Shown here: positions 6,161 through 47,400 of the stretch, in pieces | Position numbering within the stretch: position 1 is the stretch's first letter | Layout of the letters: each line of letters starts with the position of its first letter | Source: a virus | Taxonomy: Duplodnaviria > Caudoviricetes | Virus record (IMG/VR): IMGVR_UViG_3300042526_000572 | Coordinates: 1-58,135 of that record | DNA length: 58,135 nucleotides | Direction: 5' to 3' (one strand) | The notes under the pieces: model-generated | What the model saw: only the letters and a program-made list of their open reading frames with translations | What the model was told of the DNA's origin: nothing | Databases searched by the model: none | Program-made: the position numbers and the translations under genes

Positions 6161-6672
6161 GAGAACGCCTTTTACAATTAGATGGAGCTTATGAAGTAAC
6201 CCCATCACCTTATACCATGTCTATCCCAGCTTTTAAGGCTGTTGTAGATACTCATAAGGTAACTAAAGGCGCTAAAATCTTAGCTTACGTGTATTTTATG
6301 CGGGATCCAAGGTCTATCTACATGTCTTATGATGATTCTCAAAGACATGCAGAGGTTTCTAAAGTCCTATTCAAAGAGGAAGGATTCAAACCAGACAAAG
6401 TCACTAAAGATGCCCTTGAAGAGTACACAAAAACTGCTTCATCTGCAGCACTTTTACTTGAAGCTGCAATTGAGAGTATCAGTAAGATTAAAACATGGTT
6501 GAAGAACCTTGATGTAGAGTCTGAAGAGTATGATGCTGTAAAACACATGCGCATTCTTGGAGATATGGGGAAAACCATTAATGGTCTTAAGGATTTAGAG
6601 GAAGCAGTGCAAAAAGAGTCCCTTGTAAACGATACTTATGGGGGAATAACTGTAAGTAAGTATAATGAATAG
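6154..6672 (+). CDS. putative terminase small subunit
   Basis: Helical 172-aa protein overlapping the terL start; called on synteny. Confidence 0.5.
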   Translation: MLRERLLQLDGAYEVTPSPYTMSIPAFKAVVDTHKVTKGAKILAYVYFMRDPRSIYMSYDDSQRHAEVSKVLFKEEGFKPDKVTKDALEEYTKTASSAALLLEAAIESISKIKTWLKNLDVESEEYDAVKHMRILGDMGKTINGLKDLEEAVQKESLVNDTYGGITVSKYNE

Positions 6673-8689: not shown

Positions 8690-8694
8690 GATTG

Positions 8695-8702
8695 TAATTT
8701 TG
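8695..8702 (+). promoter_or_regulatory. Bacteroidota -7 element TAATTTTG upstream of portal
   Basis: TAnnTTTG followed by CA in the short terL-portal gap. Confidence 0.55.
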
Positions 8703-8724
8703 CAAGTACCTATCTCACAGAAAA

Positions 8725-11019
8725 ATGTATAGTAGTATTCCCGATCAACGCATACCATTAGCCGAAAAAGATAAGGCTTGGAAGAAGAAAACAATGGATG
8801 CTTATTTGAACCTTTCCGAGTACACAAGAAGTATTCGTAAAAGGGAATTGCAAAGACTCTACGACTACTACAATGGAGTTATGTATCCTGAGGATTATGA
8901 CTATGTTCTTAAGCCATACGGAAAATCTAGGAAAGCATTCCCATCTAAAATGCGGAATTATCCTATCATAAAACCTACAATTGATTTACTCTTAGGGGAA
9001 AAATCTCGTAGACCTTTTAACTACTCTGTAATTGCAATAAATGCTGATGCAGTAGATAGGAAAGAAAAAGCTAAGATGGATTTCATTAATGAACAGGCAA
9101 TGCAGATGTTCACGAATGAATTGAATGCAATGGGTATAGACACAGGAGAAGAGTCTAAGCCTGTTCCTCCACCTGACAATCTTCAACAACAATTCGAAAG
9201 AACTTATGTAGATCATGTAGCTGTTCTGGGCCAAAAAGGATTGACATATATTCTTCAGCATCAAGAGATTCACGAAAAGATGCAAAAGGGATGGTTTCAC
9301 TTCTTAGTTGCAGGAGAAACCTTCTCTGAAAGAACCATTCGAAACAATGAAGTAATTTATGAAGTTCTAAATCCATTGGATGTAGACTACGATTTAGATC
9401 CTGACTTGGATTACGTAGAGGATGGTGATTGGGCAAAGGTTACTAAGTATATGGGACCTACAAGTATCCTTAAAAATTGGGGACAATTCTTAGATAAAGA
9501 CCAATACAATAAAATCATATCTGATTCAAATTTTGATTCTGGAAATCTCTTTATAAGTTCAAGAGAGAATACAAATAACTCTAGACTGATTAGAGTTCAA
9601 ATACTGTACTGGCAATCCATGAAACGCACTGGATTCTTTACATCGGTAAATCCTGAAACAGGAATGCCTGAAACAGTTGTTGTAGAAGATGGGTTTAAGA
9701 TTCCACAAGAAGCTAAACTTTATGGGGAAACTTCATTGGAATGGATTTATGACAACTCCCCTTGGCAAGGTATTCGAATCGGAGAAGATTTAGATATAGA
9801 TGTAAGACCTGTAACAGAGGAGAGAGTCTCCCTGGACAACTTAAGTAATACTAAACTTCCTATCAATGGGAAAAGATACTCAGACATAAACTCTGAGAAT
9901 ATTTCTTTAGTAAAACTTGGGGTACCATTTCAAGTCAACTACAACATTTACAAGTACCGGTTAGAAACAGCCATAGCTAAGTCTAAAGACATCATTGCTC
10001 AATTGGATATAAACCTAATCCCTAAGAAATGGGATATGGATAAGTTCATGTACTTTGTAGAAGGTACTGGCATTGCATGGGTAGACTATGACAAGGAAGG
10101 TGTACGATTAAGTCCTCAGCATCAAACTGTAATGGACTTAAGTATCAAGACTATAGGCATGTATATGGACCTCCTTAATTCTATTCAAGCTGAATGGGAG
10201 AATGTTTCAGGGGTAAACAATCAAAGGAGAGGTGATGTAGGTCAGTATCAAGGTAAAGCTATGGGTCAGCAAGCAATTATTCAATCCTCGCATACAACTG
10301 AAGATACTTACAGAAAGTTTGCAGGGTTTGAACGTAGAGATTTACAAGCTTGTATAGATTTAGCTAAACATGCTTGGATAAATGGGAAGAAGGGTATGTA
10401 CATCATGCCTGATGGGTCTCAACAGTTCTTAGACGCTCCTGAGGGTATTCCAATCAATGCAGATTTAGGAGTATTTGTAACAGATGCAACCTCTGAGGTT
10501 GAAAAATTCAACTTTGCAAAAGAGCTTGCACAATCTATGGTTCAGAAAGGTGGTCGTGTTTCTACAGCCCTTGACATGATTGAGGGGGACAGCTTTATAA
10601 TCCTTAAAGAGAAAGTAAAGAAGGCTGAGAAGATGCAAGATGAACTTCAACAAGCTCAAGCTCAAGCTGAACAAGAACAATTGCAAGCTCAACAAGAACA
10701 ACAACTTCAAATGCATCAAGAACAGTTAGCTGATAAGGAAGCTGACAGAGAACTTGAGCGCTCTGAAGGAGAAGCGGATAGACAGAATAAGATTACTCTT
10801 ATGAAGATGCAACTTGAAGCTAAACCTCAAGTGATTGTTCCAGATGAAAATCGTAAACTTAGTCTTGAAGAAAGAAAAGTAGACGAAACTCGTAGAGCAA
10901 CTGAAAGTGCAGAGAGACAAAAAGATAAAGAACTTCAATTAAAGAGTTCAGAGATGCAATTGAAAGCTGCAACTGAAAAGTATAAAGTGGATAACAAACC
11001 TAAACCTTCTGCTAAATGA
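8725..11019 (+). CDS. portal protein
   Basis: Follows terL; YPIIKPTIDLLLGE and SGVNNQRRG...AIIQSS motifs; long Gln/Glu coiled-coil barrel at the C-terminus. Confidence 0.9.
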   Translation: MYSSIPDQRIPLAEKDKAWKKKTMDAYLNLSEYTRSIRKRELQRLYDYYNGVMYPEDYDYVLKPYGKSRKAFPSKMRNYPIIKPTIDLLLGEKSRRPFNYSVIAINADAVDRKEKAKMDFINEQAMQMFTNELNAMGIDTGEESKPVPPPDNLQQQFERTYVDHVAVLGQKGLTYILQHQEIHEKMQKGWFHFLVAGETFSERTIRNNEVIYEVLNPLDVDYDLDPDLDYVEDGDWAKVTKYMGPTSILKNWGQFLDKDQYNKIISDSNFDSGNLFISSRENTNNSRLIRVQILYWQSMKRTGFFTSVNPETGMPETVVVEDGFKIPQEAKLYGETSLEWIYDNSPWQGIRIGEDLDIDVRPVTEERVSLDNLSNTKLPINGKRYSDINSENISLVKLGVPFQVNYNIYKYRLETAIAKSKDIIAQLDINLIPKKWDMDKFMYFVEGTGIAWVDYDKEGVRLSPQHQTVMDLSIKTIGMYMDLLNSIQAEWENVSGVNNQRRGDVGQYQGKAMGQQAIIQSSHTTEDTYRKFAGFERRDLQACIDLAKHAWINGKKGMYIMPDGSQQFLDAPEGIPINADLGVFVTDATSEVEKFNFAKELAQSMVQKGGRVSTALDMIEGDSFIILKEKVKKAEKMQDELQQAQAQAEQEQLQAQQEQQLQMHQEQLADKEADRELERSEGEADRQNKITLMKMQLEAKPQVIVPDENRKLSLEERKVDETRRATESAERQKDKELQLKSSEMQLKAATEKYKVDNKPKPSAK

Positions 11020-11414
11020 GAACTCCATTCGAAGTAATGTTAGAGGCGTATGCTAATAACTATCAAGGTTCTATTTCAGACCTTATGGAACAAGAAGCTA
11101 TGGCCGGGGAAGCTGCTCCTGCTGAACAAGCCAATACTCCTGAAGAAAAGCGAGTGGGGATGAGTAATGGGCCACGACCTATTCAGTTTAATAATGTTCA
11201 AGGGGAACCATTTAATACAATGGAAATGGGAGATACTCCAATTAATATGGATATGTATAAGGGAGAGGAATTGGTAAAGTCTTATCAAGATGTTCAACCT
11301 GGCGTACCTCACATAGATACAGCAGGTGCAGATACAGTTATTGAAACACCATCCTTTAAGTTAGGAGGTTCTATGGCAGATAAGTTAAGGAATTCTAAAT
11401 ACTTCAGAGGATGA
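11016..11414 (+). CDS. probable virion cargo protein
   Basis: ATGA-coupled to the portal; carries TVIETPSFKLGG. Confidence 0.6.
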   Translation: MRTPFEVMLEAYANNYQGSISDLMEQEAMAGEAAPAEQANTPEEKRVGMSNGPRPIQFNNVQGEPFNTMEMGDTPINMDMYKGEELVKSYQDVQPGVPHIDTAGADTVIETPSFKLGGSMADKLRNSKYFRG

Positions 11415-13960
11415 AAAAGTCTAAATGTTCAGTTTGTCCTGACGACATAAGTTCTACTCCTAAGGACTTAAAGAAGTATCAGACAGGCAGTAAATCAAAA
11501 GATGTTTTGTACAACATAGACAGAGCAAGAGAACTTGGATATGAGCCAGACGGAACAGGTCATTTACCTTCTGTCGATTCTGAAACTGGAATGTGGTTGA
11601 AGTCCAAGAAACATCCTACTGCTAGTAAAGAATTAATGGCTTACACTTTAAATCTTGACTTGCAAAGGCAATTAAAGCATCCAATTGTGAATCAAGAGGG
11701 GTACTTTGGAGACGATCAACTTCAATACCAAGAAAAAACCTTACCTAAAGATTTAAAGAAGTATCAGACAGGCACTTCAACTTACTCTGGAGGCATGCTT
11801 CCTATGGCAACAGTTTCTTCTCCTATGTCTGAAAGTCCTATAGCTAGAAACTTGAGAGTTAAAAAAGCTTTACAAGAAGGTAGAGATGTCAATACAGCTA
11901 AGACTGCAAAAGAAAGAGAGTTTGAAAATACTGTAAAGGAACTCTCAGGAGCAGGGTCTGCGGAACGTATTTACAACAATCCTAAAAAGACTGCTGTAGG
12001 AACTGCAAAAGCGCTTGCAAACATTGCGGCTCTTCCAGTTGGAGTAGGTCAAGGACTTTCAGAAGTTGTAAGAGGAAAAGAGTTTAATATGGGAAATAAT
12101 CCTCTTACGGGTGGAAAATACTCTGAAGGATTTAATGAAGCATTAGATGTTGCAACAGTACTTCCTGCAGTAGGGCTTTTAGGTAAAGGTGTAAGAGCTG
12201 GTAAAGCAGCTATTGAAACAAGTAAAGATGTTGGTTTATTATCTAATGCTCATAAATTAAATCCTTTAGCATTTAAGCCTAATAAATCAAATTGGTACAG
12301 ACAGGTTGGTAAGTCCGCAATAGATGATGCTTTAAAAACGGGAGTAATTAGAGAAGCTGGTGAAGAAGTTTCTCCAAGAATGTTGCAAGAGTTTCAAGAT
12401 CAATTAGTAAGAATGCAAGGAAATGGAATGGAAGCAGCTTTAGCTTCTAGAAGACCAGCTTCTCCATTTTTTGGAAAAGGGGAGTTATTTTATCCTATGA
12501 ATAGAAAACCTGTAATAAATAAAAAAACAGGTAAATTAAGTAAAAATCCAGCAGGAGCTGGATCTGCCGATCATTTGATTGAAACATCTTTACCAAATGA
12601 GTCTTTTCAACCAGCTTATGTAAAAGGTATGGGGTTAGGTGTGCCAACAGAAGTTGGGCAAACTGCTATTCTTAAACCAGATCCTAATTTAAGAAATCTT
12701 GAAAATTTTAATTTGTACAAAAAAGATTGGTTACAAGGATATAAAAAAGAAAACTTAAAAAAGTATCAATTGGGAACCGTGTTTGTAAATAGTGCACAAG
12801 ACCCAAGAAATCTTGCATTTATTGATTCTACAGAAGTTGGTAGGAAGTCTATGCAATATTTGCAACAAAAAATTAAAGAAGGTAGTCTTCCAAATGTAAC
12901 AGATTCTGGAAGACCTGTAAGAAGAATTGAAGATTTGTTAGACATAGATTCTAGCAAAATACGGTCTCAAGGTGTTACAAATTTTGGAGTTGTGGGTGTA
13001 AAGTCTTTTCCAAAAGGAGACCCTGCTGCTAAAAATGAACGTATGCCTAGAACTGGGTTACCTAATAAACCTGCAATAGTTATAGAGGGACCTTACTCAA
13101 TTAGAGAAGATTTGCATCAAATGCCAAAGCAAGAAGTTGTAGTAAGACCTAGACCTACCTACACTTCAGTGCCTATAATTAATCCAAATATTTCTGCAAA
13201 TTTTGCAGAAAATGATGCATTGCCAACTACAACTAAAATTCCTAACTCAATTTCTTTTGCAAAAAGTCGAGGTTCTTTTAATGCCAAAGGTCTTTCAAGG
13301 TTTAATAAAGAAACTAATGAGTGGGAAAAAATACCTGAAGGTTGGTTTAATAAGGGAGAGGGGAAAGGAATAGAAAACTTACCTAAGTTTGAATTAGGTG
13401 GGGCACCTCCTGAGAGGAAGCCAAGGGTTATCACTAACTTAAAAGATTTTAAAGTAGCAGAAGAGGCTTACAATGACAGCCTAACCTTGCATAATTATGG
13501 AGAAAATACAATTAAACTTATAAAAGCAGCAACTAAATATATTCCAGGAAAAGCTCCTGGATTTGAAGTTGCGCAAAAAGCTTTTAAGAGTTTAGAGGAT
13601 TTGAACGGAGTTGCGCCAAGTTCATTTGATCAATATTGGAAAAGATGGAGATATTCTGATGGGCGTTCAGAGAGTATGTCGGCAGGACATTTTACAAAAC
13701 CAGTGCAGCCAGTAATATATAAACCCGTTGTTGATACGACTCCAAAACCTCCAAAACCTCCTACCAAAGAGTCAGCAGTAATCCAAAAGAAAGTTGAACA
13801 GACTCCAGGCACTATTCCACCATCTATTACTGCACCAACTCCAATTGTAAAAAAGGATATAGAAAAACTAATGATGCCATCAGGAAGCTACATGCAAAAA
13901 GATGACTTTATTAAAAAGTATGGGGAGAGTGCTTGGAGGAGAGCTTCGGGACAAAAGTAA
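11411..13960 (+). CDS. 849-aa modular putative virion cargo protein
   Basis: Four segments each opened by KKYQTG, KKYQTG, KKYQLG or PKFELGG; one segment is ART-like. Confidence 0.7.
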   Translation: MKKSKCSVCPDDISSTPKDLKKYQTGSKSKDVLYNIDRARELGYEPDGTGHLPSVDSETGMWLKSKKHPTASKELMAYTLNLDLQRQLKHPIVNQEGYFGDDQLQYQEKTLPKDLKKYQTGTSTYSGGMLPMATVSSPMSESPIARNLRVKKALQEGRDVNTAKTAKEREFENTVKELSGAGSAERIYNNPKKTAVGTAKALANIAALPVGVGQGLSEVVRGKEFNMGNNPLTGGKYSEGFNEALDVATVLPAVGLLGKGVRAGKAAIETSKDVGLLSNAHKLNPLAFKPNKSNWYRQVGKSAIDDALKTGVIREAGEEVSPRMLQEFQDQLVRMQGNGMEAALASRRPASPFFGKGELFYPMNRKPVINKKTGKLSKNPAGAGSADHLIETSLPNESFQPAYVKGMGLGVPTEVGQTAILKPDPNLRNLENFNLYKKDWLQGYKKENLKKYQLGTVFVNSAQDPRNLAFIDSTEVGRKSMQYLQQKIKEGSLPNVTDSGRPVRRIEDLLDIDSSKIRSQGVTNFGVVGVKSFPKGDPAAKNERMPRTGLPNKPAIVIEGPYSIREDLHQMPKQEVVVRPRPTYTSVPIINPNISANFAENDALPTTTKIPNSISFAKSRGSFNAKGLSRFNKETNEWEKIPEGWFNKGEGKGIENLPKFELGGAPPERKPRVITNLKDFKVAEEAYNDSLTLHNYGENTIKLIKAATKYIPGKAPGFEVAQKAFKSLEDLNGVAPSSFDQYWKRWRYSDGRSESMSAGHFTKPVQPVIYKPVVDTTPKPPKPPTKESAVIQKKVEQTPGTIPPSITAPTPIVKKDIEKLMMPSGSYMQKDDFIKKYGESAWRRASGQK
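11459..11774 (+). repeat. 31-bp direct repeat (29/31) flanking module 1
   Basis: CCTAAGGACTTAAAGAAGTATCAGACAGGCA (11459-11489) vs CCTAAAGATTTAAAGAAGTATCAGACAGGCA (11744-11774). Confidence 0.9.
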
Positions 13961-31900: not shown

Positions 31901-34286
31901 AGGTATTATACACAAAGGAGATTCAAAAGGATTTGGAGGAACTATTTATGCAATTGGTGGACAAAGTCATATTGCTCTAAGACCACTTAGATATTTGATA
32001 GAACTTCCATGTTCTTATGAAGCTTCTTGGAGAAATGTACGAGGAGATAGGTCTAAAGTAGCTTATGCAAGTTACACCACAAACAGTGCAAATTTTAATT
32101 ATGCAGCCACTCCTGGATATGATTCCGCAAAAGAAGCTTTTATGGTTTATCTTGCTAATCTTCATGCATTTAAGACTGATGTATACAATTCTGTAGAAAC
32201 TCAAAATTTAGTCTGGACAGGTTATGAAGTACTTGGAACTGACATAAATAGATTTGTTGTAGATGAAAATGGAGTTCCTATATCAAGTATTCCTACTCCA
32301 ATACAAGTTACAGATGGAACTACGTATGGAAATAATCCAGTGACTCAAGGTGGAGTTTCTGTCCCAAGCCAATGGGGTGGACCCGTGACTTATAGTAATT
32401 TTCAAACCAGTTCTATATTTGGTGGAGACACATTTATTTGCAGATATGGGTATAGAATGACTCATAGGGAAGAAGTAAATTCTATTCTTAATAGTTCTAC
32501 AGGATTAAATATGGGGTCAGTAGACCACAAATCTGTAATTATGTCTATCGTAGAATCTTCTGAAAACATTAACTTTAGACATATAGAAAATTTATCAGAA
32601 CCTTATTTTCCTGGAGACTCTCTTGCAAATGTGCTTAAGGTAAAAGCAGATACAGACTTAACTTATAATCCAGACCAAGAAACTGGAAAGATAAAATACA
32701 ATGAAGATTACTCTTCAGAGAATGATCTCAAAGTAGTTCTTCCTTTCCCTTTCTATTTAACTCAACCTGAGACGCATACTGCACGAGTAATACGTTCAGC
32801 ACGAACTACTTCAGGTTCAATTGTAGACAACTACAGGATATGGCAAGTAGACCAATCTAAAGAGTTAAACAATAAGTATGGTCGGTTGCAGAAAATTTCT
32901 GCTATGTCTAATCTTCTCTTGTTTCACATGGAGAATGGGTTGTACATCACAAAAGGCAAACAGACTATGAAAACGTCTGAAGGTGAAGCTATTGTAGGTT
33001 CTGGAGATATATTCACTCAAGAGCCAGACTTAATAGTTCATAATGATTCTGGGTACTTAGGGACACAATCTAGATTTGCAGATATTGTTACTCCTAAAGG
33101 GTATTTCTTTGTGGATATGCGTAAGCTTAAGATTTTCTTGGTAAGTAGAGGCGCTCCTACAGAACTTACAGCAAATGAATATGGCTTATCTAATTGGTTC
33201 CAAGCCAATCTTCCTTTTACTTTAAATCAATATGGGTATACAGGAGGAGAAACAAGTCATATAAATGGAATAGGTTACCATTCTGTATGGGATGAAAGGT
33301 ATCAAAGAGTCATTCTTACAAAGAGAGACCTTATTCCTACTATAGCCTTTACAAGTAATCTCCAAAAAGGTTTAAGCACACTATCAAGTCCAGGAGTAGG
33401 TATAATAATTGTAAAAGGAAGTTTCTACTCAAGAACAAATGCTTTGGATGCGTGGGAACCATTAAACCCAACTATTTATACTACTTACAACGGAGAACCA
33501 CTTTTCACTCGTTCTGGATGGACAATATCTTTCTTACCTTCTGATGAAGAAAAAGGAACTGTAGGAGTTTGGGAGAGTTTCCATGACTACATCCCTTACA
33601 TGTATTCTTATACAGGAGTAGATGTGCTTTCACATAATGACATTGGTCCATCAAACATACTCATCTTAGACCGAGGTATATACAGACATAATGATGAAGT
33701 AAATCCAGGACGATTCTATGATGTGCTTTACCCATCTGAAATAGAGGTAATTCTTAATATGGCACCAACCATTGATAAGCTTTACTCTTCACTCTCTTTC
33801 TTTACAGAAGTCTTTTCGCCCAGTACAGTAAGAAACAGGAAAGAGTTAGATGCAGGATTCACATCTTTCATCCTTTATACGGATTCTGGAATGTCTGAAG
33901 TGACTCCAATTGAGTACCTTATAAATACTCGTAGAATAGGTTCTGAGTGGAAGATAAATGAGTTTAGAGATATGTCTGCTCAAAGTGTTGACTCTTCAGC
34001 ATACTTTGTAGGTCCATATTCAGGTTCTAACTACAATGTTCCTAGTGCAAACATAATGGGAAATCAGAATACTGGGGCCCTAACTCACTTGTCTATTCCT
34101 AACTTAATTGTAGATGGAATGAGTGAAACAGCAAACCCTGCTTATATTGATTTGAACAAACCTTGGTACGAACAACGCAAGTTTACAGGTAGGTATATGT
34201 CTGTTAAATTGATATGCGATAATACTGCTAGAAATTGGGTAAATTTGCTCGCAGTTAACTCCGAAGTAAAAGCTTATATAAGATGA
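28920..34286 (+). CDS. tail stabilisation/muzzle protein
   Basis: 1788 aa; beta-propeller-like N-terminus (VYWTDDLNPPR), YQRDEVYAF, FGGDTFICRY and WESFHDYIP. Confidence 0.8.
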   Translation: MASEQEQETSKSVRLIGGLFKDTSHVDQPSGSYRHAKNMTINTVYGANSVEFGIKKIAEVSPLGIVIGSIPLDDDRVVYFVLNGSISEIGLLVGETYSTIFSPTFAQLSNANLNFSPSNPIKGTYKLQADGDVFVYWTDDLNPPRTLNVNRQLNSLPNLLYGRDSLTSPDTAFINQLNLFPHAGPVPHIDLDGVYSGGGCKTGVYYLALAYADDDLTPTNYVSVSNPVSIVDAPEGVYPIETYDGSPANVLTGKSIIWDVSNLNTDKRYIKISIIKKILGSLSAIDLPLREIGTTANMLITYSGEETESASSLNAVLVDKVEYKTAKTIEQLDSSLYLGNLTSKTDLGYQKYANFIKADPVTKCFNNFDPFVITGNFLMRRDSDNSVIDKGYRSPKNIYDYRGYQRDEVYAFYIAFILKSGKMSYAYHIPGRTDLGPVSRTLLKEMDSDALDLDPLSPNYGTVLGPATNIKEGVSLYENWVGAWDIIGLTGGASNPQGYPYQWYDFSHLTIPYGSRNMNYWKNLNEFYPDTEHFDVVDAEFPSNTQTSLRPTNGVKTNVRHHRFPGNKHRPYSTFQGSNSDTVASQLTNSSSATYTIYWYWVVAFNNYSGGGFFAEGTVPVYDWSRARELQEANGQPGDDGPIQQIEDVGDPWYCDPSQREWSDQEIENIFINSGCVIPPGGTANGTLGNIQFQYSPTGLQTGTDVVFGWNVPNLGMPTGSCYLASTPGCSAIGNSVVTNVTSSEVSLADPNGICEYPDVFWDAHGRGGWIAWGVCDYALKDLPGEEDDKFEQKVCALGIQFSDIKIPKSIADQIQGFRIYHAKRTHENRTIIGQAPIHGMGDRKNMDISGCDGGGTTQGLLDYYLPGGQPNGTFAPPGWTTADIAAPNLKSAEYPRELYSFHDFYLLNRRPSLAQATHLRLQYKLEMFNFKGSSSYNIDGELSDSENETFSCLKPEVITSFHLAGEQERVINGIFPVKLNWLLKDNAKDYITGGIIHKGDSKGFGGTIYAIGGQSHIALRPLRYLIELPCSYEASWRNVRGDRSKVAYASYTTNSANFNYAATPGYDSAKEAFMVYLANLHAFKTDVYNSVETQNLVWTGYEVLGTDINRFVVDENGVPISSIPTPIQVTDGTTYGNNPVTQGGVSVPSQWGGPVTYSNFQTSSIFGGDTFICRYGYRMTHREEVNSILNSSTGLNMGSVDHKSVIMSIVESSENINFRHIENLSEPYFPGDSLANVLKVKADTDLTYNPDQETGKIKYNEDYSSENDLKVVLPFPFYLTQPETHTARVIRSARTTSGSIVDNYRIWQVDQSKELNNKYGRLQKISAMSNLLLFHMENGLYITKGKQTMKTSEGEAIVGSGDIFTQEPDLIVHNDSGYLGTQSRFADIVTPKGYFFVDMRKLKIFLVSRGAPTELTANEYGLSNWFQANLPFTLNQYGYTGGETSHINGIGYHSVWDERYQRVILTKRDLIPTIAFTSNLQKGLSTLSSPGVGIIIVKGSFYSRTNALDAWEPLNPTIYTTYNGEPLFTRSGWTISFLPSDEEKGTVGVWESFHDYIPYMYSYTGVDVLSHNDIGPSNILILDRGIYRHNDEVNPGRFYDVLYPSEIEVILNMAPTIDKLYSSLSFFTEVFSPSTVRNRKELDAGFTSFILYTDSGMSEVTPIEYLINTRRIGSEWKINEFRDMSAQSVDSSAYFVGPYSGSNYNVPSANIMGNQNTGALTHLSIPNLIVDGMSETANPAYIDLNKPWYEQRKFTGRYMSVKLICDNTARNWVNLLAVNSEVKAYIR

Positions 34287-36334
34287 AAAAAGTTTTAAGA
34301 AAATATCAAATCGGCTCTCAAGGGTTAAATTCAACTCCTACTATTAATCCTTACACAGGATTTTCTCCATCTACGGGACTTCAAGAACCTAGTGGTGTAT
34401 TAGGAATGAGTAAACCACTTGATTATGAAAATAATAAACCTAAAACTCAACTTGCTCCAAGTTCTCCCCTTCTTAATAAACCATCTTTAAGTCCTACTCC
34501 TACTTCAGCTCCTTACACTGGACTTAATTCTAAGCCAACTGTAAGTCCTGCTTTTACTCCTACCCCATACATAGCTTCTCCACAAAGATATGCTTCTGCC
34601 TCAGTTAAACCTGAAGCAGGTCCACCTAAAACTGCGTTTGGTGCTACTAAAACTGGACTTAAAGAAACTAAACTTCAATCTTCTACTTTAACTACACTTC
34701 CTAAAACTAATACTGGGGCAAATGTTGTAGGTGGGGTGACAGCAGGATTAAATATGATAGGAGAAGGAGTTGAAACTTATAGGAAATTTAATCCTGTAAC
34801 ACCTGGACCTACTTCTATTTATAATAAAAAGGAAGAGGGTATGTTAAAAAAAATTAATAAAGAGCGCGATGCTGTAACTGCACTTTCAACTACAGCCGGT
34901 GCCCTAGGAACTGCAGCAGGAATTACAGCAGCTATTCCAATAATAGGATGGGGAGTAGGCGCAGGATTGGGAGCTGCAGCAGCTGGGACAGGAATTGCAG
35001 CAGCAGCAACAGCAGCATCTCTTGATACGCAAGAATCAAATCTTGGTAAAAGAGTTAATGCTAGAGTAGAAAGAGAAAAAAAAGAAGCAGAAGGGTTAAG
35101 AAAAACTCAAGAAATTGAGACTATGATGAATTCTTCAAACCCTTTAGATATTCAAAATGAAATAAGTGGTGAAACAGACCTTATGAGAGGAAAGTACGGA
35201 GGTAGAATGCCTGTTTATAAAATGGGAGGTTCTCGTAGTTACCAAGAACCTAACGCAGAGTTAGAGCGTGGAGAAGTAATCATGCGTAATGGAGGAGGAG
35301 TTAAAGTGATTAAAGGAGATAGGCATGAAGAAGGTGGAGAGGATGAATACCTTGCTCCTGGCGACTTCGTATGGTCTGACCACCTAAAGTATAAAGGTAA
35401 AAGTATGGCTGAACTGTACTTAATGGTAAAAAATAGCCCAGAAAAAGTAAATCAACTAAAAGATTTACAAGAAGATCTTGCAAGTAAGGAGGAACCTTCT
35501 GAATATAATGATTTACCTCAAGCGAAATATGGAGGATTGCCACAATATAAAAAAGGAACTCCAGCTGCTCCTGCACCTACAGGAGTAAATTCTAAGGCTA
35601 AAACTTGGTTCAATGAGTATGGAGAGTACATACTCCCAACTTTATCTGCTGCAGGGCAAATTGTAAATTTAGCTCTTGCAAAAGATCCTTATGAAAATTT
35701 AAGTGTTCCTAGAGCTAAAAAAGTTAGCTCGAATCAACAAATTTCTCTTGCATACACAAATGCTCAAGCGGAGTTAGATGCCAATGAGGCAGGTGCTGTT
35801 GATGCCAGAGAATCTGCTTTATATACAGGAGCTGGTCCAGGAAGTACAGCCATCTACCAAACAATTGCAAATCAACAAGCAGGTTTAAATTCTAAAGCTC
35901 AAAATGAAGCCAATAGAATAAACATGAGTATTGCTGCAGAAGAAGCTCGTCTAAATTCTGACGACAAATACAGGAGAGAAAGTTTCAATGCAGAAGCTGA
36001 AAATGAAAATGCAAAGTTGAGGTACGATAAAAATGTAAATCAAGCTGCATACAAAGCTGCGACAACTGCATCTTATGGGAATATTTTTGCAGGTATTGCA
36101 AATGATGCCCAATCTTTTATGAGGGACAAAGCTGTTGCAAGATCTATAACTAGAGGTACAAACATTGATAGGAATAGATATGCAATGAATCTCGAAGCTG
36201 TTGAAAAAGCTGCAAGAGATGAAGAAACAGCAAATGCTGCTAAAGCTAACCGAGATTTTTCTGAAGACGAGTACCAAAAGCTCAGAACAAAGAAAATTGA
36301 TGAAATAAACACCTACTTATCTAAGAGAGAATAA
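34283..36334 (+). CDS. virion cargo/ejection protein 1
   Basis: Gly/Ala hydrophobic segment (AAIPIIGWGVGAGLGAAAAG); AELERGE...HEEGG...WSDHL domain; KYQIG, KYGG and YKMGG motifs. Confidence 0.7.
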   Translation: MKKVLRKYQIGSQGLNSTPTINPYTGFSPSTGLQEPSGVLGMSKPLDYENNKPKTQLAPSSPLLNKPSLSPTPTSAPYTGLNSKPTVSPAFTPTPYIASPQRYASASVKPEAGPPKTAFGATKTGLKETKLQSSTLTTLPKTNTGANVVGGVTAGLNMIGEGVETYRKFNPVTPGPTSIYNKKEEGMLKKINKERDAVTALSTTAGALGTAAGITAAIPIIGWGVGAGLGAAAAGTGIAAAATAASLDTQESNLGKRVNARVEREKKEAEGLRKTQEIETMMNSSNPLDIQNEISGETDLMRGKYGGRMPVYKMGGSRSYQEPNAELERGEVIMRNGGGVKVIKGDRHEEGGEDEYLAPGDFVWSDHLKYKGKSMAELYLMVKNSPEKVNQLKDLQEDLASKEEPSEYNDLPQAKYGGLPQYKKGTPAAPAPTGVNSKAKTWFNEYGEYILPTLSAAGQIVNLALAKDPYENLSVPRAKKVSSNQQISLAYTNAQAELDANEAGAVDARESALYTGAGPGSTAIYQTIANQQAGLNSKAQNEANRINMSIAAEEARLNSDDKYRRESFNAEAENENAKLRYDKNVNQAAYKAATTASYGNIFAGIANDAQSFMRDKAVARSITRGTNIDRNRYAMNLEAVEKAARDEETANAAKANRDFSEDEYQKLRTKKIDEINTYLSKRE

Positions 36335-38401: not shown

Positions 38402-41400
38402 ATGAAAAAATATCAACTTGGAAGCCTTGTACAAAACCCTGATACAGGGGATTTGTATAAGATAGATAATTCTACAGACGCTCTAGACGGACTTACTTTA
38501 AGAGACTTTGAAAATATTTTTGGAGATGAAGAGAGGGATGATGAAATAGTTCTGCCAGATAATTTTGGCGAATCTCAGTATGATACAGAAGTTACTTCTC
38601 CAAAAGAACTAGAAAATCTAGATAATTTTAGAGCTTATTCGCAGACACCTCTGGATGCTCTTGGAAACTCCATTGTTAAGTTTGTAGGATTAACATCTTT
38701 CGGCATAGTATCTGGTACTAAAGGAGTTGCAAAAGGTTTATTAGATGCAAAAGCGGCAGTAGGTGACTACTTAGACGAAAACCAGTCTGACGAGAAGCTG
38801 ACTACTTGGGAAAAATTAAAAGGTGGGGGAAATGCTGCATTAGACGCTTTTACTGGGAATTCAGTATTTAAAGCTATGGAAGAGGATTCGGAAGAATTAA
38901 ACGAAAAATTTCCTCATTACTACTCACAAGCTGAAAGAGAAAGTGACTTTGTAAGTCAGTTGACCACTTACAATATGTGGGGGGATAAGTTTGTAAATGG
39001 CTTGAGTTTCCTAGCATCTGCAGCCATAACTGGAGGAGGTGTAAAATCAGCTGTAGAGTTAGGTTTTACTTCAATGGGGGCAGCAAAAGCTCTCTTAATA
39101 GGCACAAGACTGGCTCCAGAAGCTGTTCGTGCAGCTACTTTAACAAGTTCTATCGCTACAAGAGCTGCTGCTGCCTCTGGTGCAACTCAAAAAGCAGTGA
39201 CAATAACAGCACAAGCAATAGCAGGTTCAGGTTATGAATCTGCCTTAGAAGCGGTAGCTGTTAAGGACGCTATTATAAATGATTATTTAGAGGATGGGGT
39301 TGATGCTAGAGGCTATAAAATATCTAAAAGGTCTAAAGAATGGAGCAATCTTACAAGGGAAGAAAAACTAAAGCATCTATCCACTAAAGAATTGCAAGCA
39401 CTTATGGGCCAAGCAGCTAGTATGCATAACGCAACTTTTGGTATAAGTTTCGCAGTAACAAGTCTGAGTAACGTGTTTATGCTTGGGCAAGTATATGGCG
39501 TAGGAATTGTAAAACACAGTCAAGCCCTTAATAAACTTAAAGTTGGTACAGACAAAGCTTTAGACTCTGCATTAGGATATAAAGGAGTGTTAGGTGCTAC
39601 AGGAATAGACAGAGTAAAAGGATTTGGAAGCTGGGGGCTTAGAGCTTCCCAAGAAGCTGGAGAAGAAGCCATACAAGGCATAACTAGCAAAACAGCTACG
39701 GATTATGCTTCTAAGTCTGTACTCACAGATGCAGGATTTACAAATGAAAATGAAGATTTTGTAAAAAGTTTGGCAAGGGCTTTAAAAGACCAAGCTTTTA
39801 CAACTGAAGGTCAAACAGAAGTGTTCCTTGGATTTGCTTTAGGTGCAATGGGAATGCCTAAAAAATTTGGAGGAAGTGGATTAGCTTGGACTGGAGAAAT
39901 AGAAGAGCAAAAACGAGCAAGAGCCTCTAGAGAAAATCTTACAGAGTTTCAAACCAAGAATATTGAGCGTATGGAAGAACTTGCTAAAAAGAATCCCAAT
40001 TTTGGTAAAGGGACTATTTTAGCTATGGTTGCTGTAGAAAATATTAGAAAAAGCGAAAAAGACTTTAACGAAGCAATGGCTTCTGGAGACATAGCTACTG
40101 CAAAGTCTATTGAAATGGATAACTCCTTTGACATGTTCTTGGCCAAAGACTTGGTGGGAGAGCTTCCAAACTTAGAGGCGGAGTTTTACAAAGGATTAAA
40201 ACGCGAAGGAGAGGATTTCAAAACTGCTTTTGGGTATTCTGAGGAAATGACTAAAGCTCAGATAAATGATAGAAAGATTCAGTTGAGGTATTCTTTCGAA
40301 TCAGCTATCAAAAACTACAAAGAAGCTGTAAAAGTTGTAGACAAGGTTTATAACCTGTCTGAAGAAGATAAGTACAAGAAAATTTCTCATCCAAACTCTC
40401 CTGCATTTATACGTAGGATAATGATTCATGCTGCAGTTTCTGCTGAAAACAGAGACATGAGAGAAAAAGCAGTTATTGCTAAAGCTGCAGAAATTATAGG
40501 TGGAGATATTACATCTAAAGATGGATTAGTAGATACTATTACTATTCAAACTCCAGATGGGCCCAGAGTAATCCCTATGGGCACCATGAATGCTTTGGTT
40601 GAAGACGAGTACGGAGTTAAAAACTTTCAAACTGTAGATTTTCAACGCAGAGAAACTGCTCTTCGGTTACGTCAACTTGCTGCTGTCCCAAAAAGACAAC
40701 AAGATGCAGAGCATATAAAAAGAGTTGAAGACCTTCAAGCTTTGTTTGATGTTCTAAAAAGAGAAACAAATGGAGATAAGCCTGTTTTATCTCTGTTCTT
40801 AGAAAATGGGAATGACTCTGAAGCTAAAACTTTAGATGAGTGGATTGCTCAAGACCCTTTGCGAGCTGGAGATAGTGAAGAACTTAAGCAATTGTTGAGT
40901 GATGCACGTAGATTAAGAGCTGAACGTCACTATTTTGCCTCTTTGTTTCAAAAACTTACTACAAAAGAGGGTAAGAAAGAGATGTCTGATAAGCTAACTA
41001 AGTTACAGAAAGACTTAGTAGAAGCTCAACTAGAAGCTGGAACAAAAGAAGAAAAAGAAGCTTTAAAAAAGTTAAGTATAGATGAGCTTAAGGCTAAGTT
41101 AGCTTTATACTCTTCAGATTTAACTATTAGACTTGATGAGTTTATAGAAAATGTACAACTTAAAAAAGAGACTCTTAGAACTAATCTAGAGCTTGTAGAC
41201 ATGCTCCAACCTTTTATGGAGCAACTAACTGCTAAAGGTAAAAAGAAACTTAGGGGGGCAAACCGTAAGACTCTTGTAGACCCTAAGACTGGAAATAAAA
41301 TGGCTCTTTTGACTGTACAAGAGTATAAAACTCTTTACGAAAAAGCTGTACAAGAAATACCAGGATTAGAAAGAGAACTTGCAAATATAGATGAATCTGT

Positions 41401-44400
41401 AGAAGCTAGGATTAAATCTACAGAAGAACTTAAATATCAATTAAATGCTCTTATTGTAACTAAAACTCCTAATCCTGAAGGATATGAAGCTTACTTAAAA
41501 GCTAAAGATAAAGTAGATGCTTTTGAATACCTTAGGGAAGCTTTGAATCTGCCTGAAGACTTTAACTACGAAAGTTTTACGTATTTCTCTGAAAACGAAG
41601 AGGACATAAGAGTTTCTTTTAAAGAGGCTTTGACCTTAATGGATGATGGAATTGAAGCAATGGCTTTAGGAGTAATGTCAGCAACTGCTGAGTTAGATTC
41701 CTACAAAGCTCTTCTTGAAGGACATAGAAATGCTATGGCAAGTGTAGACTTGCTTCAAACAGCAGATACTGATGAGAATATAAAAGCTACTGTAGCAGCT
41801 TTAGAAGAACTCCTCAGAGTAGCTAATCAAAATTTAGTGGAAGCTCAAGAACGTAAAAAAGAACTTGAGAAGAACTACAATACTATACGAAGACTACAAG
41901 CATACATGAAAGCTATGGCTTGGGACGCTTCTACAGCTCACAAAGATGCTATAGGAAGTGTAGAGTTGGACCTTGAAAGTGTTATTAGTGCAAGTATACT
42001 GGACACTTCGTACACACCTGTTACAGGTGATGCAAGATTTTTACCAGATATTGCTCAAAATAAAAATGGATTCCTTAAAACTACAGGCGATAATGCTAGT
42101 AGTTTAAATAGGTACATAGAATTGTCAAAACAGATTTCTTTAACTGACAATGAAAAGAAAGATTTGAGGCAAGCTAAAAACCAAGTTATTTGGTATGATT
42201 GGTTGTCTAAATCTGAATCTGGAAAAGGTAATCCTTTAAATCCATTTGTAAAAATTTTACTTATAACTGAAAAGTCTCTTGCACATCCAGGAATTCCTCA
42301 AAGTCTTAGAGATGCTTTGTCAGGTACATTTGAGGGAAATGAGGATGTTAAAGCTGTAATTGTTAAGACTAATAAAGTAGATGGGCAAAACACTTGGGAA
42401 GCTGTGACTCATCAAGGAGGTATAGTTTTTACATCTTTAATGGATCCAGAATTAAGGACTAAGTCTGGAGAGGAAAGGTTTACAAATAAACTTGGCACAC
42501 CCAGAACAGGTCCTGAAATGCAAGGTATAGTAGAGGAGTTTGCAGCTTGGAAAAGTACTGTGCTATCTGCTAATGAACCAAGATTTGTACCTATTACTGG
42601 AAAGTCTAACGGGACAGTTGTTGTAAATAAAGCTCCAGACGCTCCTTTACTTTTTTCAGACGCTGCAGTAATGTATGGGGTAGGAGTTAAGAACACAAAG
42701 CTTATGGCTGCGGTTAAACTTACCAAAGCAGAAATTGCTACTGGAAAGAATTTAAAGCCTTCTCCAAAAAGTCCATCTGTATGGTCTAAATTGGGTATGG
42801 TATGGGCCTACGACCATGTAAGAGCAGTTCTTGTGCCAAGCGAACGTCAACGATTAAGCGCCTCTACAGCACTCACTGTATCTCGTCTTTTGCAGTTACA
42901 ACTTAAGACTATTAAAGAATACAATGATCAAGGAGAATCTCTTGGAAATGCAGTTAAAAGGTCTAAACTCCTTACTTTAATATCTACAAAAATAGATGAC
43001 CCTATTTCAATTGAAGCCAATAAAACTTCTAAGGCAAAGGTCAAACCTGCTATTAAACAAATAGATGTAAACATAACTTTACAGGACCATTTGAATGATT
43101 TAGTCATTCTTACTAGCTCTGTTGGGCCATACGCACTTGATATAAGGATTGAAGATAAAGAAGGCGTCATCATCTATGGGAATAATCCTGCAGATGGGAA
43201 ACCCTATACTATGTCTTTAGCAGACTTTGCTATCCCTGCAGCTCAAAAAAAGTTTTTAGATTTCCTGCAAACTAAATTTCACCAAGCCAATGCAAATACA
43301 ATAGACAATGCAATGGCCGAAGAATTTTCTGAGTACAAAGGGAAAGGAGGAAAGCCTGAAAAACGCTCTGAGAATAAGTTTAAACCACTTACTCCTTGGG
43401 TAAAAGTATCTATTGGAGAAGATTTAAGAATAAATCCTATTCAACCATCTACAGTATTTCACAGTTACAACCATTATTTGCTTACACCTTCTGCAAAAGA
43501 AGAAAAAGCTCCTATAATGTTTAAGACTATGCCATTTAAGAATGTCCTAGCTGTGCAAAGGACTAAAGGAGGGTACTTAACTTTTGGTAAAGGATTAAGT
43601 CAATCAGGTCAAGTTGCAACACCTTTTAGCACATTTTCTTATAAAGCAGATGCTAAAAATGCAACAACTGAAACTGTAGAGACTCCTAAAGTGCCTGCAG
43701 TCAGTCTTACTGCACCTACAGCAGAAGATTTAGGGTCAAATTGGTTGCAAACTACTTCTGAAGAAAAAGAAAATCCTTTTCCTCAAAAAGAAAATGTAGA
43801 AGGAGAAGTTCCACCATCTACTGAAGATGATGAAATAGCTGCTCAAATAGCTGCTGCAGGAAATCTTGTTGTACAAAACTCTAATCTTGAGTTACTAACT
43901 TCAACAACAAATGTTCCAGGAGATGTTCAAAATGTAGAGACTCCTATTTTAAGAGAAAACACTTTACATGAAAACATATTAGCTGTACCAGAGCTTTTTA
44001 AAACACTTAAGGCAGAGAATATATCAAAAACTTTAAATATTGGAGGTAAAGTATCTGCTTTAAGTGTTCCGGCTATCACTATAACAGTTTCTGGTAAAAC
44101 TGTTGAAATTGCAAATTATGAGATAGTTGAAGCTACAAAAGAAAATCCAAATGGAATTGAGTTGTCTTTTTTAAGAGAAGACCCTGTTCCAGATAAACTT
44201 AGAGAGGAAATATTAAAGCGCATTGCGGAAGCTATAGAAATGCCATTTTTGAATCTGTTTCAAGCAAATAATCCTCGCACTCTACAAATACTTGAAACTA
44301 TTGATGAGGAAAAAGCACGAGTTCTTGGAATGACTCCGTTGTCAATAGCTGACTCTCAAATACTCATTACATCTTTGAGTACAGAAGGAGTTGCTCAACT

Positions 44401-47400
44401 TACAGATTATGGGAAAGTATTAATAAGCAAGTTTGCTCCTGGAGGTGCTTTGTACCATGAAGCTTTCCACAACATCTCTTTGTATGTTTTATCTCCAAAA
44501 GACTCTAAATACTTGTACGACAAGGTTAGGGCAATTCCTGGGAGTATTACTACGTACCAAGGAGAAACTAAAAAGCTTTCAGAACTATCTAATAAAGAGG
44601 CTGAAGAGTGGTTGGCAGAAGAGTTTAGATACTACTTACTTGACCCATCTTACAAAGTAGCTAAGACCAGTGTAACTGACACAAGAAGTGCTATCAAAAG
44701 ATTCTTTGATTTCTTAAAGACCACTATTAGAAGATTTACAAAGACTAATGAGAACTTTGAGTTTGATAAAAATTTAAACTCAATAGAAGGTCTATTTAAA
44801 GCTATAGAAGGAGGTAAGTTCTTAAATGCTTCAAGGCATAGTGAAAAAGGATACGCTGGAATATATAATATGTCTTTAAAAGATGCGGGATTGACTGTTA
44901 AATTTCAAAGAGACTTGGTAGACATATTTATAGCTGAAATTGGCAATGCAGTAGATGGGGACAAAATAAATATGAATCTAGAAGATTTGTATATAGGTAT
45001 GACCTTAAAAGAAGAGGAGTCAAGAGTAAAAGCATTATATACAAGAGCATTTTTTGATTTAAGAGAAAAGCTTTTAATTAAAGAAGCAGAGTTTTTGAAA
45101 GCCACTGAAGGTAAAGAAAGACCTGCTGAAGAAGTTGTTTCTTATGTTCCATCTACTGTTCCTATTGCTGTTCCAGTACAAAAAGAAAATATATCTAGCA
45201 AAGGCTCTGAATTTGCCAAAAAACTTACCAATGTAGGAAATACGGTAGGATTAACTTATAAAGGTAAATCTTACGTTAACTCTGAACACGCTTATCAAAC
45301 TTGGAAATCAGGTGAATTTAATCAAGCAGGTTACGATTTAAAAGGTGGTAAAGTAAGAGGAGGTAAAATTGGAGACACCTTCTCCATAATGACAGATATT
45401 TTGACTGAAAAGTTAAAACAAAACCCTGAACTTATAGAGGGTATTAACCAAAGAGGTGGGTTGGGTTATGTTCAGCAATCCACTCACAATGTAATTGGCG
45501 ATAAGTTTTGGGAGTCAACTGGTCAAAATAAATTTATAGAGGCTCTTACTAAAGCCTATCAAAATGTGGCACCTCAAGCCACCTCTTCACCTGTTCTGGA
45601 AAAACCTGTTGCACCTAAAAAGAAACCCTCAGAACTGGCTTTAAATTTTATGAAGTTAGAGGCTGTTCAAGCGTATCTTAAAATTACAGGCAGAAGTTTG
45701 CAAGAAAGAGGTAATCCAGCAATTCTTAAAGAACTTGCAGATAAGCACTTTGCTGAAATGAAGTTTAAAGAGCCTAAAGAAGCTACAGATGAAGAAGGAA
45801 AAACTAAAGACATGTATGACAGAGAAGTTCATACAGAAGGTCCTATAAACACAGCTGAGAGCGCTATACGACTTCTTTTAGGTGGGATTACGGATCCATC
45901 ATCTATGACCACTGCGTCTTTACCAGGAACTTATCCTTTGAGTCTTCAAAAAATACATGGGGGTAAAAGCGTACATGGCATATTTAAGGTTTTGCAAGAT
46001 TGGTGTATGAATTCTACCTCTTTAGATCAGATTATAGAGACTGTCAAAAAGAAAGGTGAGATTTATGTGCCAAACACAAGAACTAAAAAGTATCCTTGGG
46101 TAAGTACTGTGCTTAAACGTATAGAGCATCTTCAATCTATAGATGATACACAAATTGTAGGTATGGACTTAACTGCTACAGCTAAGCATAACATGCTTAT
46201 ATCTATTACAGCTCAACTTACTAAAGCTAATCAACCTCCTATGCTTACTTTGCTTCAACAGCAAGGAACTGAACTAGGAGCATATAATAGGATAAGTATT
46301 TTAAATCCTACAGATGAAGCTGAAATAGGAGCTATTACAAATGAGTGGAAGAATAACCTCATTACTTTAGTAAATAGAGGGCAAGCTAAACATGTTAAAA
46401 TTATAAACAATGTGTTTCAATTTGACCCATCTGTACCAATTATCCCAAGTAATCCAAATAGTAAACTTATAAATGTTTCTTCATTAGTTGAAAAAGCTTC
46501 TATAAGAGAAATTATAGACTACTTAAAACCGTTAGGTATAGTTTTCTCTAATGAAGAACGATTAATAAATGCGTTTGAAGAGATAAATGAAGAGGGAGAA
46601 ATTGAAGAAGACTTTGAAGCTATTCAAGAATTACGAGAAAATTTAGGTAACATATTTAGTGGATTGTCTAGTCCATTAACAAGTTCAGGGGCATCTGTAA
46701 ACCTATATAGTAGGAATACATCTGAAACCGCATCTCGTATGCGTAAAATAGTTGAGTTAGAAAATAAATATGGTGACCGCATAAAAAATGCAAGTTCACA
46801 TATTCATGGAAAAGTTGAATACGATATTACTGAAGGAAATACACTTACGTTGGTTGCAAATAGTGTTTTAAGCACTCTTGCACACCTTAACCCTGCAACA
46901 GTTCCTTACAGTAGAAATAGCCTCACTGTAGCAGCTCAAACAATTAAAGTAAAAGCTGGAGAAGCTCATGCTTTACCTGTGTACCGGTCTATAGGATTAA
47001 AAGAGGACAAGTCTGGAGAAACAGGTGCCAAAACAAATAAACTTGAGGTTCCAGAGATTTTAGCAGAGAAAATTAGAACTATTCAAGAAGGATTTTCTCC
47101 TCTACCACCAGCTGCTGATAAAAATACTGTGTTGAATGTGGCTTTAGGTATATGGGAACCATTGAGTAATGGAGTTGGAAAAGTCACTTATGAAAAAAGT
47201 GAAAGCGCTCTTTTAAATTACTTAGAGGATGAAATTCTAGCAAGTGTAGTTGGTATGCGAGAACTTTCTTACATCAAAAATTACGAAACTAATATTCAAA
47301 AACTTAGGTACTTTGAAGGTATAGTTGGACCTAAGAATAATTCTTTAGTAGAAAACTACTTAAAAGACTCGAAAGAAACCAATAAGATTTACGAAGAGTT

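Follow-up and report, generated by a model that had tools for sequence, protein, structure and literature searches.

The window analysed here, a stretch of 58,135 nucleotides (nt) comprising positions 1 to 58,135 of the virus record IMGVR_UViG_3300042526_000572, carries between its portal and scaffold-position genes an 849-amino-acid (aa) open reading frame (ORF; 11411..13960, plus strand) that is divided by four copies of a short peptide, the junction tag, and that is almost certainly a mosaic of exchangeable cassettes. Directly 3' of the portal gene (8725-11019, PHROGs match) lies a 132-aa ORF (11016..11414, plus strand), which we call the carrier and which overlaps the 849-aa ORF by ATGA; on the other side follow the scaffold-position ORF (14054-15118) and the gene for a crass-type major capsid protein (15182-16639; Pfam Crass_capsid, 1.8e-76). 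TerL (6665-8689) also has a PHROGs match, and tail ring proteins 2 and 1 as well as the muzzle protein (Pfam crAss_MUZ, 1.4e-37) are recognised downstream of the capsid gene. On these capsid, portal, TerL, ring 1, ring 2 and muzzle matches the window is a crAss-like phage, present as a 58-kb record with an estimated completeness of 67%. Portal identity to deposited phages is below 30% among the matches listed, which makes the clade of the window an uncultured one. Public runs that contain the window stretch carry the labels lake water or freshwater metagenome, and the contig of one close relative has a marine label.

Re-reading the sequence reproduces both the 849-aa ORF and the four motif positions given in an earlier note on this DNA. 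Tag 1 (aa 17-26, 11459..11488, with KKYQTG beginning at 11471) and tag 2 (aa 112-121, 11744..11773, with KKYQTG beginning at 11756) both read PKDLKKYQTG, tag 3 (aa 447-455, 12749..12775, with KKYQLG beginning at 12758) reads ENLKKYQLG, and tag 4 (aa 655-664, 13373..13402, with KFELGG beginning at 13382) reads ENLPKFELGG; all are on the plus strand, and together they give the form (N/D)L(K/P)K(Y/F)(Q/E)xG(G/T/S). A direct repeat surrounds module 1 (11459-11489 and 11744-11774, 29 of 31 nt identical), and junctions 3 and 4 have GAAAACTTA in common, at 12749 and 13373, with 77% identity over 30 nt; both repeats had been reported by the earlier note and are found as described. Among the 33 ORFs of the window, the pattern [YFW][QEK]xG[GTS] occurs four times in the 849-aa ORF, once in the carrier, three times in an ORF of 683 aa, once in an ORF of 1847 aa, and in no others. 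The single tag of the carrier is close to its C-terminus, and the first tag of the 683-aa ORF occupies residues 7-11. In the AlphaFold model, tags 1 and 2 fall in low-confidence stretches (predicted local distance difference test score, pLDDT, about 50) that flank a confident domain at aa 31-110. As a separate observation, part of tag 3 is encoded by an in-frame, dnaX-like A-AAA-AAG heptamer (12757-12763, plus strand), at which a -1 shift would lead to a stop nine codons on, just past the junction; this heptamer is not enriched in the window, with 40 copies found and 43 expected.

Homology to the 849-aa ORF is distributed in pieces. A full phmmer scan finds 506 database proteins that match parts of it (E up to 1e-3), and these matches fall in discrete blocks at aa ~20-110, ~247-446, 447-656 and the C-terminal ~60 aa. 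The ORF comprises at least five independently distributed blocks, two of which have separately folded, confident cores. The earlier note had counted four motif-bounded modules: that the modules are bounded by the motifs holds, but the count does not, as module 2 is a composite with a tagless joint near aa 262-266, seen with the relative P0002 and with a contig of run X10. The N-terminal leader MKKSKCSVCPDDISST (aa 1-16, 11411..11458, plus strand, like all modules that follow) is also present in P0002, P0003, P0029, P0035, P0041 and L085, and is diverged in P0047. Module 1 (aa 27-111, 11489..11743) is a widespread domain of about 85 aa, with 70 BLAST high-scoring segment pairs (HSPs) at varied positions in proteins of 78-2434 aa and with Y44, H51, S54, L63, K64 and T70 invariant in its alignment (A5); its model reaches a pLDDT of 80-90 over aa 31-110, and a PDB fold search with it returned no match (best E 4.4). 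Module 2a (aa 122-265, 11774..12205) contains low-complexity and moderately hydrophobic Gly/Ala-rich segments at aa 194-222 and 240-262, with hydropathy peaks of 1.2-1.3 in a 19-aa window. It is common to P0002 and P0029, both of which diverge beyond about aa 266; the equivalent stretch of P0029 matches PT-TG below threshold (17.2 bits vs 23.5), and aa 179-270 of the window protein have no PT-TG (Pfam PF14449) match at E up to 10.

Module 2b, the core (aa 266-446, 12206..12748), is the most conserved module, with 89 HSPs. Module 3 (aa 456-654, 12776..13372) matches only P0035, P0047 and P0003, with 89% identity to P0035 over aa 447-656, and it gave no Pfam match and no Atlas lead; in a contig of run X10, ...YQGGGPAPFY precedes position 12784. 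We also observe that the close relative P0003 carries about 340 additional aa that separate module 2 from module 3; this block contains HEILGH at aa ~515-525, a six-residue His-Glu...His spacing that is not HExxH, and has no match in a Pfam search. At the site of tag 4, P0035 stops, and P0003 and P0029 go into another module after LPKFQLG. Module 4 (aa 665-849, 13403..13957) shares its C-terminal 59 aa with P0002 and has further matches in P0050, P0077 and P0088. Its stop codon is located at a junction: P0088 runs beyond the C-terminus of the window protein into ...QLGGELPKYQLG and a further module, and contigs of runs X9 and X10 continue through position 13956 into ...QLPKQQLGGE. Modules 3 and 4 have few close relatives, and an Atlas search with aa 456-849 gave no usable lead (the Atlas model is poor, pLDDT 0.39).

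Comparison among relatives shows that the cassettes are exchanged at the tags. Eight sequences have the common leader M(M)KK..KCSVCPDD..S.PK(N/D)LKKYQxG (P0047 in diverged form), which is then followed by four different modules: the leader tag leads to module 1 in the window, L085 and P0041, to a different 'TNF...' module in P0002, to module 2 in P0003 and P0029, and directly to module 3 in P0035 and P0047. P0003 and P0029 thus have the architecture of the window without module 1, which is the outcome expected of a deletion between the two repeats. At the DNA level, the metagenome contig L085, whose portal is 99.5% identical to that of the window over 764 aa, matches the window gene at 338 of 356 positions over nt 1-356 and at 90 of 323 over nt 357-679; identity falls right after the K-Y-Q codons of tag 2, the site of the swap, and the contig continues into the 'TNF' module. 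The alignment of the locus across related genomes, which the earlier note had proposed, thereby places a breakpoint inside motif 2, and gain, loss and swap breakpoints of the relatives fall at the motifs. Contigs of four lake or freshwater runs (short, at a depth of 2-6) show, on the parts that they cover, no joints and none skipping module 1. The ends of homology follow the same borders: among 183 BLAST HSPs, 66 end at aa 441-450, 31 end at aa 101-110, and 38 start at aa 31-40. In an all-against-all set of 204 proteins, consisting of the database hits and the portal-scaffold ORFs of related loci, at the 274 internal tags 3,319 HSPs end no more than 12 aa away and 682 run across, i.e., 83% stop compared with 28% at random positions; as the 204 proteins are mutually related, these counts are not independent events. 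We are highly confident that the 849-aa ORF is a mosaic delimited by the tags, with the exchange of its cassettes taking place at them.

The site of this mosaic is variable throughout the clade. A portal search yields 80 related loci, with a portal identity of 47-93% in the best segment, and in the 41 loci that also contain a scaffold gene the distance from portal to scaffold varies from 527 to 7,832 bp; the slot is hypervariable, in line with the expandable array that the earlier note had placed between these genes. The pattern [YFW][QEK]xGG is found 63 times in the 32,385 aa of 47 gap ORFs and 25 times in the 163,247 aa of 459 other ORFs, which corresponds to 1.95 tags per 1000 aa in the gap and 0.153 elsewhere in the same loci, a 12.7-fold difference; in 200 composition-preserving shuffles of the gap ORFs the mean is 4.7 and the maximum 12, so that the observed count is 13 times the mean. 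The conserved element of the slot is a small post-portal domain ending in ...VIETPxxY(Q/K)xGG, and in an alignment from 20 loci (A7) the GG of this tag is invariant and the Y nearly invariant. In the window, the corresponding tag of the carrier is F114-K-L-G-G118 (nt 11355-11369), and tblastn finds homologues of the carrier after the portal in related loci.

All ten of the ten carrier homologues match positions 3-80 of Pfam DUF192 (PF02643) with 15.6-26.9 bits, under the 27-bit cut-off, and DUF192 is detected at E up to 1e-3 in six of 37 full gap proteins. The 132-aa ORF of the window itself has no Pfam match even at E up to 10, though it can be aligned with the DUF192-like homologues. By these matches, which are below the cut-off, the small post-portal protein of the clade appears to be a divergent DUF192/COG1430 domain; a search of open full texts found no paper connecting DUF192 with phages. 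The variable part is fused behind the carrier tag in 19 distinct long ORFs (338-2257 aa) and forms an overlapping ORF of its own in the window, L085, L005, L007 and L011-L013, and in L018 the slot is without any cassette and the carrier still ends in GG. A frameshift fusion of the 132-aa and 849-aa ORFs was considered and rejected, as the frame is open for just four codons upstream of the ATG.

The tag recurs at a second locus. Directly after the muzzle gene, at the position of cargo protein 1 in crAss001, lies the 683-aa ORF (34283..36334, plus strand), which starts with MKKVLRKYQIGS, contains two internal tags and has a long Gly/Ala-rich hydrophobic stretch at aa ~200-247. Six of its eight homologues start with MKK.LRKYQ.G[ST], one has KYLLG and one begins further in, and variable inserts of tens to about 170 aa stand directly behind an internal LPKYQxG tag. 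Modules of the 849-aa ORF also occur behind muzzle genes in other loci: L081 has the core module (78% identity) within a 1313-aa protein (7641-11582, plus strand), one ORF after the muzzle gene, which also carries HExxH and other modules and ends in GGWLDKYQ-stop, with the next ORF 2 nt later, and L087 has module 1 within a 1191-aa protein directly behind the muzzle homologue. In L088, module 1 is found in the pre-scaffold ORF. crAss_CARG1 has no match in the 849-, 683- or 674-aa proteins of the window and is detected below threshold in two relatives, P0050 (21.5 bits vs 27) and one of 35 module relatives.

The domains recognised in relatives are of a type that ejected proteins and polyvalent proteins would be expected to have. 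Among 37 positional relatives we find SLT (3), a Pesticin-type lysozyme (1), PG_binding_1 (1) and the six DUF192 domains mentioned above; among the 35 module relatives, LysM (4) and one each of SLT, GH19, ART-PolyVal, Gly-zipper, PG_binding_1, DUF192 and the sub-threshold crAss_CARG1. HExxH is present in 49 of the 204 module-sharing proteins. In the window, the ORFs 3' of the muzzle gene are, in order, of 683, 674, 4455 and 1847 aa. The 4455-aa ORF (38402..51769, plus strand) contains the only HExxH of the window (aa 2019) and has no Pfam match; by analogy with crass-like phages it is presumably a fused virion RNA polymerase and zincin polyprotein, and on the same analogy a candidate co-packaged zincin-like protease. 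The 1847-aa ORF (51760-57303, plus strand) has an ART-PolyVal domain at aa 259-461 (Pfam 9.9e-8), which suggests a second polyvalent-type protein in the same block of virion genes. Apart from this block, a 339-aa ORF with a calcineurin-like metallophosphoesterase domain (2695-3714, plus strand; Pfam 3.7e-7) lies upstream of the packaging genes.

AlphaFold and Foldseek were run on the core and on module 1, part of the module-by-module check proposed by the earlier note, and the outcome differs between the two: module 1 has no PDB match, and the core is weakly similar to ADP-ribosyltransferases (ARTs). The core model (61 sequences) has a pLDDT of 84.7 and a predicted template modelling score (pTM) of 0.77. 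Among viral folds it comes closest to an ART-PolyVal-like phage protein (E 2e-3, prob 1.00, TMq 0.32), followed by a PARP catalytic-domain protein and a mycobacteriophage ART; the best PDB matches, the TreTu ART toxin and pertussis S1, are weak (E 0.3-0.6), and the Atlas feature lead is Tox-ART-HYD1 (0.78). In the core alignment (A4), an R and an E are nearly invariant and there is no conserved Ser, compared with the R/H, S/Y, E signature of ARTs. For the core, neither an hhalign comparison with the ART-PolyVal domain of the window, nor Pfam at E up to 10, nor a profile search of the PDB gave a positive result; profile searches of the PDB that started from the module 1 and carrier alignments likewise returned no meaningful match. 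The modelled fold indicates that the core may be an ADP-ribosyltransferase-like effector; as every sequence test was negative, ART-likeness is a lead and not an assignment.

Taken together, we propose, with a probability of about 0.6, that the 849-aa ORF encodes a polymorphic virion cargo protein of the polyvalent type and that the tag is a loading or processing signal at the level of the protein. That its product is packaged cargo is probable from the shared modules, the tags and the domains of its relatives. The hypervariable portal-scaffold slot has a single conserved element, the DUF192-like domain ending in [YF][QKE]xGG; in most relatives the variable modules are fused behind the carrier tag, and in the lineage of the window they make up a separate ORF with its own leader and tag, each further module being attached through another copy of the tag. 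Selection on the peptide would preserve the tag as a signal that directs the loading or the processing of proteins carried in the head and ejected into the host, acting by docking to an assembly partner, by cutting by a co-packaged zincin-like peptidase, or by both. Since every junction would have to retain the tag, the surviving recombinants would be those joining at it, and the short shared stretch of tag-coding DNA would help recombination now and then, as in the 29/31-nt repeat.

Several observations weigh against this proposal. On the side of cassette exchange, a tag is found no more than 10 aa away for only 10% of the 1,676 clusters of homology breakpoints, compared with 3.6% in the null (2.8-fold), distant homologues have a tag within 20 aa at 22 of the 183 HSP ends and 29 of the 183 starts, and the 849-aa ORF has tagless breaks near aa 262-266, 348, 700 and 791. 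As most breakpoint clusters lie away from the tags and tagless joints exist, the tags are a major junction type and not the sole one. On the side of packaged cargo, neither the 849-aa ORF nor its sub-regions match any Pfam or PHROG family, even at E up to 10, it has no recognised catalytic motif, and the ART-like reading of its core, drawn from weak fold matches, was borne out by no sequence test. The 849-aa protein, like the 683-aa protein, has no tblastn match in 50,697 deposited phage records, and in the cultured relative phi14:2 no gene lies between the portal and the next head gene. The 4455-aa protein, though by literature analogy maybe a processed polyprotein, is without a junction tag, and a Pfam scan of 33 window ORFs revealed no protease family. 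Nor is tag-coding DNA conserved as a rule, as the comparison given next shows.

The earlier note had cast the tag-coding DNA as a recombination handle, the peptide as a capsid-loading and/or protease-cleavage signal and the modules as injected effectors; the handle part stands for the repeat of the window and fails as a general rule, and the signal and effector parts are plausible on circumstantial evidence. Eight of the 10 codons are the same in both copies of PKDLKKYQTG (P = 0.048 under phage codon usage), and both use CAG (16% of all Gln codons) and GGC (7% of all Gly codons), which are rare; this suggests copying at the DNA level. However, over 82 tag instances the tag-coding DNA is identical at 15.6 of 30 nt within a locus and at 14.8 of 30 nt between loci, and this equal likeness points to conservation mainly at the protein level. 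If the tag had no protein function and were a linker or recombination scar that spreads with the cassettes through DNA microhomology, the rare codons of the 29/31-nt repeat, the L085 crossover inside the tag codons and the 3 of 84 within-locus tag pairs with at least 24/30 nt identity (1.05% of between-locus pairs; the window pair is the best) would be accounted for. Such a scar does not fit the identical mean similarity within and between loci, nor an amino-acid pattern that is kept across phages whose portals are merely 47-62% identical. It also does not fit the ends of proteins, where there is no junction: 47 of the 204 proteins end in W-[LIVF]-x-x-[YF] within the last 12 aa, compared with 1.9 expected, typically as ...(G)GWLxKY and about one residue, and 18 of the 204 have the tag in their first 30 aa (truncation may affect some of the database entries, but a genuine stop codon closes the L081 example). 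Nor does it fit the carrier, in which the GG is invariant even in cassette-free loci such as L018. A tag without any role in the protein is very improbable to us, and from the pattern across distant phages, the carrier end, the protein ends and the linkers we conclude that selection appears to act mainly on the peptide, with the shared DNA as an occasional aid and not the cause.

How such a peptide would act separates the remaining alternatives. If the tags were protease sites, the 849-aa ORF would be a true polyprotein, in which a zincin-like peptidase, either co-packaged or itself a module, cuts at or beside [YF][QKE]|xGG and frees the effectors, with the leaders as propeptides. The natural C-termini of the 47 proteins, ending in ...W-L-x-K-Y plus usually one residue, resemble such a cut site, proteins begin with a short leader and tag, the tags lie in low-confidence linkers, and HExxH occurs in the 49 module-sharing proteins and once in the 4455-aa protein of the window; zincin-like processing has moreover been proposed, in the parts of the literature drawn on here, for polyvalent proteins (Iyer, Burroughs, Anand, de Souza, Aravind 2017, PMC5512222), where it is considered probable, and for crass RNA polymerase polyproteins, and phi14:2 is described as packaging the zincin-like gp65 together with its RNA polymerase. 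However, the only HExxH protein of the window is the tagless one, the 849-aa ORF has no HExxH, a Pfam protease is missing among the 33 ORFs scanned, and the crAss001 structure paper (PMC10172136), in the parts used here, does not mention cleavage. The residue after Y in the tags (Q 52%, K 31%, E 17%) is also loose for a protease P1 site. We regard a true polyprotein as doubtful, and cutting of the tag as rather unlikely; an uncut docking or flexible-joint signal is a tentative option. The product could instead decorate the outside of the capsid or form a head fibre, as gp21 does in crAss001, in which case the small domain would be the anchor and the swappable modules would be displayed outside for cell-wall or environmental ligands. 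The post-portal gene of crAss001, according to the parts of its description used here, encodes a head fibre that is anchored to the capsid by its N-terminal part and has a binding domain at its C-terminus, a further point against packaged cargo, and the LysM or PG_binding_1 domains of some relatives are possible adhesins. The carrier alignment (20 sequences) nevertheless does not resemble gp21 (hhalign probability 0.3), post-muzzle cargo genes contain these modules too, and the protein at the cargo-1 position begins with this tag. In relatives, modules of lytic transglycosylase, lysozyme, ART and zincin type are found in chains of up to 2257 aa, which fit ejected proteins better than fibres. 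An external fibre is quite unlikely on this evidence, and a packaged, ejected cargo protein with a peptide-level signal is the reading that we prefer.

For the biology of these phages, a tag common to the portal-adjacent array and to the protein at the cargo-1 position is a testable candidate for a crass-like cargo loading signal. In this slot, presumed host-directed modules turn over very rapidly between strains of a phage order that is abundant and for the most part uncultured, and tag-flanked sequence offers a route to cataloguing new effector domains; if the tag were sufficient for packaging, it would be a possible handle for putting foreign proteins into phage heads. In a broader and speculative form, which we consider unlikely, [YF][QKE]xGG would serve environmental crass-like phages in general as a code for loading and release: the carrier or a shared assembly partner would recruit any tag-bearing module into the procapsid, a packaged zincin-like peptidase would free it at the tag, and it would be injected, so that the portal slot and the post-muzzle genes would be one plug-and-play effector array that strains re-equip by tag swaps.

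The concept behind the 849-aa ORF matches what is known of polyvalent proteins and portal-adjacent polymorphic toxins. In T4, a short N-terminal capsid-targeting sequence is found on unrelated packaged proteins and is removed by the head protease, and the internal-protein locus is hypervariable, with the genes behind the targeting peptide exchanged between strains. T4 has one N-terminal signal per small protein and a known prohead protease, whereas the tag described here occurs in several copies within long chains and also at C-termini, and the scan of 33 ORFs revealed no prohead protease. In polymorphic toxins, a conserved pre-toxin border motif, e.g., VENN or PT-TG, marks the swap point. MuF polymorphic toxins, in the parts of their description used here (Jamet et al. 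2017, PMC5576092), are similar in being portal-adjacent, with a conserved N-terminal head-associated domain and recombining C-terminal cassettes. In contrast to them, neither the 132-aa nor the 849-aa ORF has a MuF domain (Pfam, E up to 10), the carrier being DUF192-like; there are several junctions per protein and not one; no immunity gene lies behind the 849-aa ORF in the gap of 93 nt before the scaffold gene; and MuF toxins belong to temperate phages, whereas the phage of the window is of the lytic, crass-like type.

Polyvalent proteins (PMC5512222, from the parts used here) are similar in that one chain joins unrelated domains, its gene stands among those for virion proteins, and its packaging and delivery together with the DNA are presumed; the zincin-like processing proposed for them also agrees, and relatives of the window protein carry ART-PolyVal (P0012) and many HExxH zincin-like motifs. 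The 849-aa ORF differs in having no hallmark effector or processing domain by sequence, and in a tag that recurs at junctions, at protein ends and in a second cargo gene; no conserved junction peptide was found described for polyvalent proteins in those parts of the paper. A search of open full texts likewise found no report of a junction or terminal peptide common to two cargo loci with strain-level swaps. The closest setting is that of crAss001, which, according to the parts of the report of Bayfield et al. (2023, PMC10172136) used here, keeps cargo proteins in head and tail that are encoded after the muzzle gene. Compared with its cargo proteins C1 (gp45) and C2 (gp46), for which no tag was found described in those parts, the 849-aa ORF is located beside the portal and not after the muzzle, and proteins of the window have no crAss_CARG1 match; yet the 683-aa ORF at the C1 position of the window carries the same tag, and modules of the 849-aa ORF are found in post-muzzle cargo genes of other crass-like contigs.

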